Source: Escherichia coli | Lineage (GTDB): Bacteria; Pseudomonadota; Gammaproteobacteria; Enterobacterales; Enterobacteriaceae | Reading direction: 5' to 3' (one strand) | DNA: 64,000 nt | Assembly: GCA_902500055.1 (NCBI GenBank) | Contig: GCA_902500055.1_4131.1 | Part shown: one piece after another, positions 5,734 through 53,032 of the stretch | Numbering within the stretch: position 1 is the stretch's first letter | How the letters are laid out: every line of letters begins with the position of its first letter | Notes under the pieces: generated by a model | Databases searched by the model: none | Seen by the model: only the letters and a program-made list of their open reading frames with translations | Told to the model about the DNA's origin: nothing | Position numbers and translations under genes: made by a program

Positions 5734-5799
5734 GCCAGTACAGAGTACTGGCTTTTCTTTTTTGTATTAAATATATTATAATGAATAAAGGAGGGAATT
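5734..5799 (+). promoter_or_regulatory. Intergenic cassette: terminator hairpin, conserved TATAAT box and SD
   Basis: Hairpin gccagtacagagtactggc (5734-5752), TATAAT at 5777-5782, ATG at 5800. Confidence 0.75.
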
Positions 5800-6537
5800 A
5801 TGTTACCTTTTGGAAGAATGGTTAAGTACGGGAATAAAATTGAATATAAGCCACATGGTGAACAATTAATCACGACAATAGGAACAACACAATTTACAGT
5901 TCCTGCTGGCGTTACCGAAATATCAGTATGTGTTATTTCGCCGGGTGGTCAACGTGGTGCTGGTGGCGGCTTATCGTGGCGTAATAATATTCCGGTTACT
6001 AGTGGTGAGTACTTAAGTGTTTCTCTTACACATCCCAACACTACTACACCAGTTGAAAACGGTTTATATCGTGGAACTGAAAAACTATGTGTTAGCTTCA
6101 CTGGTGAATATAGGGTTGGTGGACTAGGTGGGAAAGCTGCTAACGCTATTAATGATGGTGGTGGTAATGGGGGCAACGCTGGTGTAAGTGGTGGTGCAGT
6201 CATTGGTGGTGGTGCTGGTGGCTACACTGGTAAAGGTGGTAACGGAGATGCAATCACTGGTGAAAATGGTGCTGGCGGCGGCGGTGGTGGTGGTGCATTC
6301 TATAATACCTCGTTCATTGGTACGGGTGGTGGTACTGGTATCATTGTTCAAGGTGCTAATGGCATTGGCGGTAGATACGATGGTTCATATAATGGTGGTG
6401 CTGGTAGTGGTGGTGCTGGTAAGATGTATGGTGGTGGTGGTAGTATATGGGATAATTTTTCTTATACGGCTGCTGGTGGTGGTGCTGTGCGAATAATATG
6501 GGGACGTGGGAGATATTATCCTAACAATTCAGTCTAA
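5800..6537 (+). CDS. Glycine-rich domain protein with the same MLPFGRMVKYGN leader (array member 6, not RCC1)
   Basis: Begins FTVPAGVTEISVCVISPGG, continues with long GGxGG tracts and ends GGGAVRIIWG. This is the layout of glycine-rich-domain proteins. Confidence 0.8.
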   Translation: MLPFGRMVKYGNKIEYKPHGEQLITTIGTTQFTVPAGVTEISVCVISPGGQRGAGGGLSWRNNIPVTSGEYLSVSLTHPNTTTPVENGLYRGTEKLCVSFTGEYRVGGLGGKAANAINDGGGNGGNAGVSGGAVIGGGAGGYTGKGGNGDAITGENGAGGGGGGGAFYNTSFIGTGGGTGIIVQGANGIGGRYDGSYNGGAGSGGAGKMYGGGGSIWDNFSYTAAGGGAVRIIWGRGRYYPNNSV

Positions 6538-46970: not shown

Positions 46971-47672
46971 TTATTTACGATTCCTTGCGGAGTTTTTATT
47001 TCTTGCTCTAAATGTCGGTGTCATTGAATGACAATTCGGACAAAGAATTTTTAAATTCGATAGGTCATTATTTGTTGCATCACCATCAATATGTTCAACT
47101 TCGGTAAGGACTGCACCATCAACTGGATGACGTTCATCCCATCCACAATCTTCACATGCAGTTCCACGTGTTTCATGTAGGTATCTTCTCACATAATTAC
47201 TAATTTTGCAAGTCTTACCAGTACAACCCAGTTTATCACCAGCAAGCCAAGACTTAACATAAGTGTCATATTGGTGCTGTTTATGGCATTTCGAATCACA
47301 ATATTTCTTATCTGTTTTTCCTTTAGGTATAAATGTATTACATGATAAACAGTACTGATCCTTCACCATCTCACCTGTATGTCGGTTATAACCTTTATTA
47401 TTATAACTAGCAGCACAAGATTGATTGCAAAATTTCTTTACTTCAACCCCTTTACAAAAAGGTATTGAGTTATGACACATCAAACACAACGTTGGATTTT
47501 CATTATAATATCTTTCACGAAATTCTTTATTAAGATTCGACAATGTAAATCCATACTTTAATAGTATTGTATTATAAGAAGGTAGTTCTTTACATTCATT
47601 GATATCTTTTTTGGTTATATTTGATTTTTTATTTTTGTATAGATTGTACATAATCTCTTTCATAACATCCAT
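46971..47672 (-). CDS. HNH endonuclease with Cys-rich zinc-finger region
   Basis: CEDCGW...VEHIDGDATNNDLSNLKILCPNCHSMT, with multiple CxxC pairs upstream. Confidence 0.8.
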   Translation of the reverse strand: MDVMKEIMYNLYKNKKSNITKKDINECKELPSYNTILLKYGFTLSNLNKEFRERYYNENPTLCLMCHNSIPFCKGVEVKKFCNQSCAASYNNKGYNRHTGEMVKDQYCLSCNTFIPKGKTDKKYCDSKCHKQHQYDTYVKSWLAGDKLGCTGKTCKISNYVRRYLHETRGTACEDCGWDERHPVDGAVLTEVEHIDGDATNNDLSNLKILCPNCHSMTPTFRARNKNSARNRK

Positions 47673-49293: not shown

Positions 49294-49316
49294 GTATACC
49301 TCTCGTTGTTTTTTTG

Positions 49317-49389
49317 CGACTCTGGAGGAACTCGAATCCCCAACCAATTAATTAACAGTTAATCGCACCACCTATTGTGCTACAGAGTC
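49317..49389 (-). tRNA. tRNA-Asn (anticodon GUU)
   Basis: Acceptor GACTCTG/CAGAGTC, anticodon arm ATTAA-CTGTTAA-TTAAT, T arm GGGGA-TTCGAGT-TCCTC. Confidence 0.85.
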
Positions 49390-49397
49390 ATAATTAT

Positions 49398-50102
49398 TTA
49401 TAAGCCATGTCTTTTCAAAAATCTAGCAAACACATTTTTGGAAGCACCATAACTTTCATATATACTAACTTTTTTCTCACCATTATTCAAACGTTGTTTG
49501 ATATCTTCTATGTTATCTTCTAAACGTTTTACGTTTGCAAATTTCTTAGATGGTATATTATTTTTGGTTCTATAATTCAGTACTGAACCTGAACTAATAT
49601 TCATTATTTTAGCAATTTCAGTATCTAATAAACCTTGGTTAATATATTCTTTTACCTTTTCATAATCAACAGATGTTTCACCACCCTTTGTATTAGAAGG
49701 AGGCTTGACCATTTTTTGTGAACACTCAACACTACAATATTTTGTATATGATTTCACTTTAGTATGCCTACGGGTAAATTCCATATTACAACAAGCACAT
49801 ACAAATGAATCATATCGTGCTTGCACACCATTCTTATGTGTTTTATAACGATGTTCATCAACATGAAGTATTTGCAAATTTGACAAATCATCATTTGTGA
49901 AATCATTATCAATGTGGTCTGCTTCTTCAGACTCAGTTAAATATCTACCTTCTTGTACTGCTAATAGATATCTGGCATATTGAGTACTGCTTCTATCAGT
50001 TGGAGAATTATAAAGTATTACAGTTCTTCTACCTTCAGGGTTTATCTGTATATACCCATTCTCCCAATCATTACTGTATGGATATTCTAATTTTATTTTC
50101 AT
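49398..50102 (-). CDS. HNH endonuclease with C-terminal helix-turn-helix-like region
   Basis: EADHIDNDFTNDDLSNLQILHVDEHRYKTH. The C-terminal DTEIAKIMNISSGSVLNYR looks like an HTH. Confidence 0.8.
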   Translation of the reverse strand: MKIKLEYPYSNDWENGYIQINPEGRRTVILYNSPTDRSSTQYARYLLAVQEGRYLTESEEADHIDNDFTNDDLSNLQILHVDEHRYKTHKNGVQARYDSFVCACCNMEFTRRHTKVKSYTKYCSVECSQKMVKPPSNTKGGETSVDYEKVKEYINQGLLDTEIAKIMNISSGSVLNYRTKNNIPSKKFANVKRLEDNIEDIKQRLNNGEKKVSIYESYGASKNVFARFLKRHGL

Positions 50103-50121
50103 TATTTTATTTCAAAGTTTG

Positions 50122-50426
50122 TGAGCCATCTGTGAGTCGAACACAGTACCTAACGATTCGTATAATCTATAGTTTTCACTATAGTACGGACTATATCATC
50201 ATCCCATAGGGATGCCGGACGCTAATGATGTATTACACAGTAAGATCGTACTGTACCATCTAGTCTCTGCACCTTCCCAATACGCTTATTGGGCTTGGCT
50301 CAGGATTGTCATCACCATTACGTGTTAAGATTTCCCTGAATTCATCCAGTTTTTCAATCACCATTACTGATGAAAGTCACCATTGTCGATGAGTCGTTTG
50401 CTCTAACCACCGTGAGCTAATGGCCC
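50122..50426 (-). tRNA. tRNA with CAU anticodon (elongator Met or Ile2), split by a group I intron
   Basis: 5' exon at 50389-50426 is GGGCCATTAGCTCACGGTGGTTAGAGCAAACGACTCAT. 3' exon at 50122-50158 is AATCGTTAGGTACTGTGTTCGACTCACAGATGGCTCA. Joined, they give a full cloverleaf with anticodon loop CTCATAA. It lacks the initiator features (1:72 is paired and there is no GGG/CCC in the anticodon stem). Confidence 0.85.
50159..50388 (-). mobile_element. ORF-less group I intron (230 nt) in the tRNA anticodon loop
   Basis: The conserved core elements are read directly. P-like TTCAGGGAAATC (50329-50340), Q-like AATCCTGAGCC (50297-50307), R GCAGAGACTAGA (about 50261-50270), S GATATAGTCC (50188-50197). 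The 5' splice site follows U and the intron ends in G. Confidence 0.85.
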
Positions 50427-50433
50427 GATTTAG

Positions 50434-50670
<237 letters not shown>

Positions 50671-52489: not shown

Positions 52490-53032
<543 letters not shown>

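Follow-up and report, generated by a model that had tools for sequence, protein, structure and literature searches.

A group I intron without an open reading frame in the tRNA(CAU) gene of a jumbo coliphage, beside a free-standing HNH endonuclease gene

In this study, we asked what interrupts a transfer RNA (tRNA) gene with a CAU anticodon in a 64,000-nucleotide (nt) stretch of DNA (assembly GCA_902500055.1, contig GCA_902500055.1_4131.1; hereafter the window, meaning the whole stretch), where the interruption came from, and how it relates to the endonuclease gene that starts next to it. According to Hausner, Hafez and Edgell (2014), every phage intron known up to then lies in a protein-coding gene, despite the many tRNA genes that phages carry. 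We conclude, with a probability of roughly 85%, that the locus is a phage tRNA(CAU) gene, likely for tRNA-Ile2, that is split between tRNA positions 36 and 37 by a group I intron without an open reading frame (ORF), and that a free-standing HNH endonuclease gene of a tRNA(CAU)-associated family adjoins it. The window, with a G+C content of 33.9%, comes from an Asteriusvirus-type jumbo coliphage; over the region of the split tRNA, its identity is 98% to Escherichia virus TH47 and 94% to phage Turkey5.

In unspliced DNA the gene escapes detection: ARAGORN called five tRNAs in the window, and the split tRNA(CAU) was not among them. An earlier note, made from the letters of the window and its list of ORFs, had proposed two exons around a 230-nt insert ending in G, and each of these parts was found on the minus strand:

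50389..50426, minus strand: 5' exon, 38 nt; acceptor, D arm, and the anticodon stem with its loop as far as U36, ending CUCAU (...AACGACUCAU); read from 50426 downwards, its sequence is GGGCCAUUAGCUCACGGUGGUUAGAGCAAACGACUCAU
50159..50388, minus strand: ORF-less group I intron, 230 nt, between tRNA positions 36 and 37, with its terminal G (omega-G) at 50159
50122..50158, minus strand: 3' exon, 37 nt, starting AAUCG; A37 and A38, 3' anticodon stem, T arm, acceptor strand and discriminator A; its sequence, ending at 50122, is AAUCGUUAGGUACUGUGUUCGACUCACAGAUGGCUCA

When joined, the exons are folded by ARAGORN into a clean 75-nt tRNA(cat) cloverleaf with the anticodon loop C-U-CAU-A-A, as the earlier note had proposed. 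The intron mode of ARAGORN found split tRNAs with the junction misplaced by 1-3 bases upstream and the anticodon mislabelled as Arg or Gln; exon junctions were fixed by hand and by comparison with intron-less alleles.

The insert is recognised by the Rfam group I model (RF00028, Intron_gpI) with 99.1 bits (E = 1.9e-24), the gathering score being 50. The match, 50481..50167, overshoots the intron's 5' end by 93 nt: the P1 and P2 of the model are put in the upstream spacer and the 5' exon is treated as an insertion. Helices were taken from RNAalifold run on four phage copies, by which P1 to P9 were recovered, and their coordinates were then mapped onto the window:

50377..50381, minus strand: internal guide GGUGA (intron nt 8-12), forming P1 with exon UCAU and intron nt 1, with a U·G pair at the 5' splice site
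50358..50373, minus strand: P2 hairpin UCAUCA-GUAA-UGGUGA with a GNRA loop; 5 of 6 pairs change on both sides across the family
50343..50349 with 50215..50221, minus strand: P3, 5' strand CUGGAUG with CGUCCGG; 100% of alignment cells paired
50269..50339, minus strand: P4-P5-P6 domain, from the Rfam alignment, holding the core strings P (UUCAGGGAAAUC) and Q (AAUCCUGAGCC); compensatory changes in pairs of P5 and P6
50261..50265 with 50189..50193, minus strand: P7, GACUA (within core string R) with UAGUC (core string S), a pseudoknotted helix; invariant in 9 of 9 family members
50227..50260, minus strand: extra two-part hairpin of about 34 nt (P7.1-like extension) between P7 and the 3' strand of P3; 6 of 9 pairs change on both sides
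50200..50214, minus strand: P8 hairpin, from RNAalifold and the family alignment
50167..50184, minus strand: P9 hairpin CUAUAG-UGAAAA-CUAUAG; 6 of 6 pairs change on both sides

The strings P, Q, R and S, which had been picked out as a group I core, are the 5' and 3' strands of P4 and P7, the latter holding the guanosine-binding site of group I introns according to the group I literature. The short P1 between exon UCAU and intron GUGA, offered before as a possibility, is supported by covariation, including a change from C-G to G-C among the RNAalifold pairs of the copy in OU509535. With ORFs of at least 20 amino acids (aa) considered, the longest one inside the intron has 38 aa, in agreement with the intron having been called ORF-less; the longest one overlapping it, of 69 aa, lies on the plus strand and runs out over the 3' exon and the start of the HNH gene.

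Substitutions among copies of the intron respect this structure. The four phage copies are 94% identical, and 10 of their 68 predicted pairs have changed on both sides (RNAalifold). We also aligned nine tRNA-borne copies (four from phage tRNA(CAU), two from phage tRNA-Thr and three from gammaproteobacterial tRNA(CAU) genes) and counted pairs on a hand-drawn structure that includes the P7 pseudoknot, using 500 column shuffles, and 3' partners slid by 1-3 columns, as controls. Of all cells, 98.0% were paired, compared with 85.8 ± 0.9% after shuffling (0 of 500 shuffles reached the observed value) and 28-44% after sliding. Likewise, 30 of 63 pairs changed on both sides, compared with 16.4 in shuffled and 4-8 in slid alignments. 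P7 is invariant in the nine copies and hence uninformative on covariation. At the 5' splice site the U·G pair is present in 9 of 9 copies, and the terminal G never varies; the neighbouring exon-guide pairs of P1 are C-G and A-U in CAU tRNAs and become U-A and G-C in the UGU tRNA-Thr genes. This is the pattern expected of an intron kept under selection for splicing, and we take it to suggest that the intron still splices.

If it does, we propose that the precursor would be transcribed and the intron would fold into its P1-P9 core. The guide GGUGA would pair with exon UCAU and the first base of the intron, so that a U·G wobble comes to lie at the 5' splice site, which would be attacked by an external guanosine. 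The terminal G would then enter the same binding site in P7, and ligation of the exons would yield a normal 75-nt tRNA, to which the host would still add CCA and, probably, lysidine.

Comparison with related phages shows what the locus looks like in the uninterrupted state. WPEC5 and PBECO4 carry an uninterrupted tRNA(CAU) with 93% identity to the joined exons. Because the exon matches are contiguous in both genomes by pairwise BLAST, abutting at s2311|2312 in WPEC5 and s2663|2664 in PBECO4, the 230 nt are a clean insertion at the predicted junction. The 5' exon is 97.5% identical to the PBECO4 allele, with homology ending at its last base. The 3' exon is colinear with the intron-less alleles at 85-88% identity, and its T arm matches that of the intron-bearing Muenster allele, not that of the intron-less WPEC5 allele. 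Intron-less homologues score 54-58 bits on the Rfam tRNA model, and the intron in relatives scores 84-104 bits on the group I model. With 91-93% identity, the same intron interrupts the tRNA(CAU) of Klebsiella phages Muenster, KP13-7, RCIP0023 and phiKp_21; it is also found in OU509535 and in a 348-kb contig from ENA (L091). About a fifth of RaK2-like jumbo phage genomes carry it, and close relatives lack it at exactly the same junction. Copies occur in at least eight genomes and on at least four tRNA(CAU) exon backgrounds; between the alleles of the window and OU509535, identity is only 67%. A survey of relatives for alleles with and without the intron, which the earlier note had put forward as a check, has in this way turned up both. 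This distribution of presence and absence over several exon backgrounds points to an optional element that is probably mobile. The split tRNA is unannotated in both annotated intron-bearing records examined (Turkey5 and Muenster); TH47 and OU509535 carry no annotation.

To place the intron in a wider family, we compared it with phage and bacterial sequences. Intron-only BLAST at lower stringency against 50,697 phage records recovered seven RaK2-like genomes that carry it. The next matches were ORF-less introns in the large terminase genes of Vibrio phages (80% over 170 nt), and further ones were a cyanophage psbA intron (77% over about 120 nt), Twort-like Staphylococcus phage introns, and introns in terminase and polymerase genes. 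The Vibrio terminase introns (R16F, 1.187.O) and the Twort-like Staphylococcus introns can be aligned with the window intron over its whole length at 75-80%, including P9 and the extra hairpin after P7, which the Vibrio introns share; they differ in that they interrupt protein-coding genes and use other guide sequences. In the Vibrio phages R16F (L005) and 1.187.O (L006), the large terminase gene is broken by four group I introns of 72-94 bits each and is annotated as short terminase fragments.

Scans of IMG/VR for exact patterns, one spanning the exon-intron junction and one the P3'-P8-P7' block, gave no match. The core pattern used for wider scans (GGTGCAGAGACTAG, a gap of 30-55 nt, then AGCGTCC) found 48 loci in IMG/VR, 4 of them inside tRNA genes. 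In L028 the interrupted gene is a tRNA(CAU) that shares both its anticodon arm and its insertion site with the window; in L024, L033 and L044 the intron splits tRNA-Thr(UGU) genes, again at 36/37, and its guide has become GCAA, the partner of exon UUGU. The peroxiredoxin neighbour of L044 resembles that of a Pelagibacter myophage, and the neighbours of L033 look more bacterial, which makes its viral status less sure. Among the remaining 44 copies, L025 appears to sit in a terminase gene, by a match below the Pfam threshold. The uncultivated marine phage contigs L024 and L044, which are close relatives, both have the intron-bearing tRNA-Thr, and only L024 has a 234-aa HNH gene (~5767-6471 on the reversed contig) between the peroxiredoxin gene and the tRNA, a further case of an endonuclease gene present or absent beside a split tRNA.

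The same pattern retrieved 23 loci from bacterial genomes taken one per species. Sixteen of these span tRNA genes, and a seventeenth is truncated; the 16 comprise 14 tRNA(CAU) genes with the intron at 36/37 and 2 tRNA-Asn genes with it at 35/36. Isolates are among the sources (Piscinibacter aquaticus, Alteromonadaceae Bs31), as is a 1.3-Mb contig. When introns are ordered by how closely they resemble that of the window, those of gammaproteobacterial tRNA(CAU) genes (77-82%), Vibrio phage terminase genes (80%) and phage tRNA-Thr genes (81-83%) intermingle, and the closest relative outside the RaK2-like phages is a gammaproteobacterial tRNA(CAU) intron with 81.7% identity over 175 nt. The 3' exon of OU509535 begins like bacterial tRNA(CAU) genes, with AATCGGCAGGTC. 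In a 2026 survey of bacterial tRNA introns, those of Pseudomonadota tRNA-Ile2 genes fall in an IA clade beside those of Patescibacteria tRNA-Asn genes (PMC13011429). The bacterial tRNA-Ile2/tRNA(CAU) introns share with that of the window the type of gene, the 36/37 site, the UCAU/GUGA P1, the lack of an ORF and the helix after P7, with 77-82% identity over 160-200 nt, and the one core pattern also retrieves Patescibacteria tRNA-Asn introns. They differ in being chromosomal, whereas the window intron is viral, is polymorphic for presence or absence among close phages, and is flanked by free-standing HNH genes. On these alignments, the intron belongs to a lineage of tRNA introns already known from bacteria, one that also appears to circulate in phage genes. 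With bacterial copies at the same tRNA(CAU) site, the sequences therefore do not decide the direction of transfer.

Two other affiliations were considered and rejected. A purely phage-type intron that had jumped from a protein gene is not favoured, given the presence of the same family at the same bacterial tRNA(CAU) site. An Azoarcus-type intron (subgroup IC3) was a first guess from the CAU/GUG P1, the Azoarcus intron lying in a CAU tRNA and having just such a P1. The Azoarcus tRNA-Ile(CAU) and Anabaena tRNA-Leu introns are small, ORF-less introns of the anticodon loop, like ours, and they self-splice, as ours is predicted to do. The window intron has a covarying hairpin of about 34 nt after P7, and IC3 introns are not known to have additional helices there, ahead of the 3' strand of P3; this helix and the alignment with Twort-type and terminase introns are the grounds on which IC3 is rejected. 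In the group I literature, P7.1 and P7.2 are class-defining peripheral elements. The earlier note had contrasted introns of phage protein genes with those of bacterial tRNA genes. Its premise stands in Hausner et al. (2014), as cited above, and the contrast itself proves less sharp, one family being present in both.

The endonuclease gene lies immediately downstream of the tRNA (50102..49398 in reading direction), where the earlier note had seen it:

49398..50102, minus strand: free-standing endonuclease gene, 234 aa; N-terminal HNH-type domain with a CxxC...CxxxC zinc motif, C-terminal helix-turn-helix

Its ATG follows the end of the tRNA after 19 nt, and the gene begins 57 base pairs (bp) from the insertion site of the intron. 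The protein matches PHROG 14913 ('HNH endonuclease') at E = 5e-56. Pfam HNH_3 (PF13392) is found on about 40 of 62 homologues among the matches listed, several of which have a C-terminal helix-turn-helix, and D62, H63, N75 and four Cys are invariant in an alignment of 23 homologues. Sequence searches of the PDB with the protein returned the C-terminal helix-turn-helix only. An AlphaFold model (pLDDT 87) has I-HmuI (1u3e) as its best fold match in the PDB, and I-PpoI appears at ranks 3, 8, 12 and 23. We regard the protein as an HNH nuclease resembling I-HmuI, with a zinc motif and a helix-turn-helix tail, which is predicted to cleave DNA.

At this locus the HNH gene is present in the window, TH47, Turkey5, RaK2 and K64-1, and absent in WPEC5, PBECO4 and Muenster. 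Elsewhere, every homologue whose context was examined (CBB, Yen9-04, L086, L087, L089, L093, L094 and L096) adjoins a tRNA(CAU)-like gene, on its upstream or downstream side. Such synteny is good evidence for a tie between the family and tRNA(CAU) loci, with or without an intron, and the HNH protein of the window is probably a homing endonuclease that targets such loci, a separate element that may carry the intron along by co-conversion.

Some of the neighbouring tRNA genes are unusual in themselves. The tRNA(CAU) genes directly upstream of the HNH homologues in L086 (1394-1480) and L087 (1362-1453) are 87-92 nt long and have long variable arms. In RaK2, CBB, Yen9-04 and L094, tRNA(CAU)-like genes with unusual D arms and a common GGCCCUU acceptor each lie just upstream of an HNH homologue:

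RaK2, NC_019526 178885-178959 (L002:1963-2037): odd-D-arm tRNA(CAU)
CBB, L008:1098-1171: odd-D-arm tRNA(CAU)
Yen9-04, L009:~1105-1179: odd-D-arm tRNA(CAU)
L094, upstream of 923: odd-D-arm tRNA(CAU)

The RaK2 gene is missing from the RefSeq annotation, and ARAGORN misses those of Yen9-04 and L094.

Does the HNH gene move the intron? The earlier note had recognised in the locus the arrangement proposed for collaborative homing. That arrangement, an ORF-less intron with an adjoining free-standing endonuclease gene, is indeed present, and homing itself is not thereby established, as intron and HNH gene are distributed among the relatives in all four combinations:

Intron present, this HNH gene present: window, TH47, Turkey5; L091 (HNH gene upstream of the tRNA)
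Intron present, this HNH gene absent: Muenster, KP13-7, RCIP0023, phiKp_21; OU509535 (a different HNH_3 gene, 68 bits, in the same place)
Intron absent, this HNH gene present: RaK2, K64-1; also CBB, Yen9-04, L086, L087, L089, L093, L094, L096
Intron absent, this HNH gene absent: WPEC5, PBECO4 and others

Adjacency of a tRNA and an HNH gene says little by itself, because HNH genes directly follow 3 of the 6 tRNA genes in the cluster of the window.

The account that survives best, at somewhat less than even odds, is that the two are independent neighbours: the HNH gene would spread alone, in the manner of SegB, the intron would arrive by recombination among co-infecting phages or within a captured bacterial tRNA gene, and their meeting would be the coincidence of a hotspot. 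That the two are separable across genomes speaks for this, as does the comparison with WPEC5, in which the intron and the block of HNH gene and tRNA-Asn form two differences with separate breakpoints. The gammaproteobacterial affinity of the nearest intron outside the RaK2-like phages and the bacterial-like start of the 3' exon in OU509535 point the same way. There is also a precedent in T4 SegB, a free-standing homing endonuclease within a phage tRNA cluster, next to tRNA-Ile, which recognises a motif conserved in tRNA genes and drives the inheritance of the tRNA region (PMC2330249); SegB differs in being a GIY-YIG enzyme that recognises a T-loop motif common to many tRNAs, with no intron involved. 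Independence fits less well with the exons, since the 3' exon is more diverged from intron-less alleles (85-88%) than is the 5' side (92-97.5%), as a shared conversion tract would explain, and since the T arm matches an intron-bearing Klebsiella phage allele. Moreover, any nick or double-strand break no more than a few hundred bp away would carry the intron along by co-conversion, as has been shown for MobE and the nrdB intron of T4.

What likelihood is left beside independence and strict collaborative homing falls to occasional co-conversion of this kind. MobE is a free-standing HNH endonuclease beside an intron that cannot move alone; the intron homes in trans by co-conversion, and the initiating nick or break need not be at the insertion site (PMC2790892). 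The likeness has its limits, as nrdB is a protein gene, its intron has a defunct endonuclease ORF, and its homing was shown by phage crosses, whereas the link in the window is drawn from sequence.

Strict collaborative homing, in which the HNH enzyme would cut intron-less tRNA(CAU) at or near the insertion site and the intron would protect its own genome by splitting that site and be copied along with the HNH gene, we consider unlikely, even though several observations favour it. The intron is ORF-less and a free-standing HNH gene starts 57 bp from its insertion site; the HNH family always adjoins a tRNA(CAU)-like gene, which suggests a target within it. Genomes with the HNH gene and no intron mostly have odd D arms or long variable arms in this tRNA, as if escaping cutting, and genomes with both elements (window, L091) keep ordinary exons. 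In addition, unrelated HNH genes flank intron-bearing tRNAs in OU509535, in L024 (not in its relative L044) and in L028. Set against this are the four combinations and the high base rate of HNH genes after tRNAs in the window. In RaK2, moreover, the HNH gene lies beside an uninterrupted arm, CCGACTCATAATCGG, that is split by the intron in OU509535 and L091; because RaK2 keeps this arm uninterrupted beside the HNH gene, the arm alone cannot be a sufficient target. In L089 and L093, too, the HNH gene lies beside an ordinary intron-less tRNA(CAU). A precedent is the cyanophage psbA intron with F-CphI, a case of collaborative homing as described in PMC2790892 citing Zeng, Bonocora and Shub (2009). 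According to that account, it resembles our locus in joining an ORF-less phage group I intron with a free-standing endonuclease, and it differs in having a protein gene as host and a non-HNH enzyme shown to cut at the insertion site; the elements of the window are often apart. Overall, we regard HNH-assisted spread of the intron as plausible but unproven.

A more specific and doubtful proposal is that the recognition site of the HNH enzyme spans the anticodon loop of tRNA(CAU), such that an intron at 36/37 would confer immunity by splitting the site and would hitch-hike with the nuclease. If so, the intron-less alleles with odd D arms or long variable arms would represent an alternative escape route. 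RaK2-like phages would then be natural intermediates in the passage of free-standing nucleases and ORF-less introns to mobile introns, and the first tRNA case.

Returning to the split gene itself, which amino acid does its tRNA carry? ARAGORN labels any CAU tRNA as Met. Initiator tRNA-fMet is marked by a mismatched 1-72 pair and by three G-C pairs in a row at the base of the anticodon stem. The window tRNA has a paired G1-C72, the anticodon stem AACGA/UCGUU and 43% identity to the initiator, in agreement with the earlier note, which had found no initiator features and had left elongator Met and lysidine-dependent Ile side by side; this can now be refined, tRNA-Ile2 being the more probable. When the joined tRNA was compared with 5,426 complete E. 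coli genomes, 12 of 12 matches listed across the ranking were annotated as tRNA-Ile, one example of which has a CAT anticodon and is therefore of the ileX type. The window allele is 69% identical to the E. coli CAU-anticodon tRNA-Ile gene and 60% to elongator Met; the corresponding values are 77% for tRNA-Ile2 and 66% for Met with the Muenster allele, and 74% and 62% with that of OU509535. AUA makes up 22.4 per 1000 codons, or 32% of Ile codons, in the 40 window ORFs of at least 150 aa, and is a rare codon in E. coli. Because the phage uses AUA heavily and its host rarely, supply of a tRNA-Ile2 by the phage would make sense. The window allele also has C4-G69 and C5-G68, which count among the determinants for TilS and which we treat as a lead only; OU509535 has A4-U69.

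The tRNA is most likely, therefore, a tRNA-Ile2 that would read AUA with lysidine at C34. An elongator tRNA-Met is the less probable identity. It would fit the label tRNA-Met that ARAGORN and public records give to intron-less alleles, and an unmodified CAU anticodon reads AUG; it fits poorly with the E. coli matches listed, all of them to the CAU-anticodon tRNA-Ile gene, with the lower identity to Met, as a lead only with the C4-G69 and C5-G68 pairs, and with an AUA usage that gives the phage a rationale for an Ile2 tRNA.

Several findings weigh against the overall reading of a functional tRNA-Ile2 gene with a splicing intron and an associated HNH nuclease. As judged by eye, the 3' exon would form only a weak P10, of about 3 bp (CGA/UCG). 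The window allele does not encode CCA, the discriminator A being followed by CAA (50119..50122), so that loss of some function is possible, and its acceptor stem has a G2·U71 wobble (50425 with 50124) that is absent from intron-less alleles. The choice of Ile2 over Met is made by similarity. For the HNH gene, no Pfam family was found on the 234-aa protein at E = 0.01, with only GerE and DUF6553 at E = 10, and the fold match to I-HmuI, with a probability of 1.00, is weak by E value (7e-3) and TM-score (0.27-0.35). Finally, intron and HNH gene occur in all four combinations of presence and absence, without the co-occurrence to be expected from collaborative homing. The allele without CCA is common to the window, TH47 and Turkey5, and CCA is encoded in the intron-less and Klebsiella phage alleles; E. 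coli has a CCA-adding enzyme and tolerates a missing encoded CCA.

That the gene is decaying, a pseudogene within a gene-rich cluster whose intron no longer splices or whose tRNA goes unused, would accommodate the lost CCA, the acceptor G·U pair and the missing annotation in the Turkey5 and Muenster records, and is nonetheless very improbable, given that nearly all helix substitutions are compensatory, that the catalytic core is intact, as are the splice-site U·G and the terminal G, that the exons give a clean cloverleaf, that the arrangement is kept in at least eight genomes on four exon backgrounds, that demand for AUA decoding is high, and that an encoded CCA is dispensable in E. coli.

The split tRNA(CAU) is part of a cluster, of which the following neighbours are relevant here:

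49316..49389, minus strand: tRNA-Asn(GUU), a normal 74-nt gene 8 nt beyond the HNH stop codon (ARAGORN/Rfam)
50581..50670, minus strand: tRNA-Ser(GCU), 154 nt upstream of the split tRNA
46971..47672, minus strand: second free-standing HNH gene, 233 aa, Pfam HNH with 22.5 bits, 56 nt after tRNA-Thr
52490..53014, minus strand: third free-standing HNH gene, 174 aa, NUMOD4 and HNH_3, 31 nt after tRNA-Arg

A scan for promoters and terminators gave a result no better than that of shuffled sequence, and a scan for tandem repeats upstream found none. In the related genomes WPEC5 (L003:2364-2447) and Muenster (L004:2402-2485), an 84-nt tRNA with a GUU anticodon and a long variable arm is annotated as tRNA-Asn, a class II-like shape that is unexpected for Asn. 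Genes for tRNAs with a CUA anticodon, of the amber-suppressor type and labelled Pyl or Sup, lie within the same tRNA clusters in CBB (L008:345-417) and Yen9-04 (L009:561-636).

In the full-text literature, including papers on RaK2-like phages and Asteriusvirus and the 2026 bacterial survey, we found no description of a phage tRNA interrupted by a group I intron; subscription journals were thinly covered, and an earlier report is possible. The intron lineage and its insertion site are already known. New, as far as we found, are the viral tRNA host gene, the presence or absence of the intron among cultured phages, the retargeting of the guide between phage tRNAs, and the association with free-standing HNH genes.

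Altogether, the locus contradicts the generalisation that phage introns are confined to protein genes. The occurrence of one family in bacterial tRNA genes, phage tRNA genes and phage protein genes, with a retargeted guide, is direct sequence evidence of intron exchange between these niches. There is also a consequence for annotation, in that standard tRNA finders miss the gene, and phages recorded without this tRNA are probably decoding AUA, about a third of their Ile codons, with it. Given that cultured coliphages and Klebsiella phages naturally hold every combination of intron and HNH gene, they offer a system in which homing in trans, collaborative homing and the origins of mobile introns may be studied.

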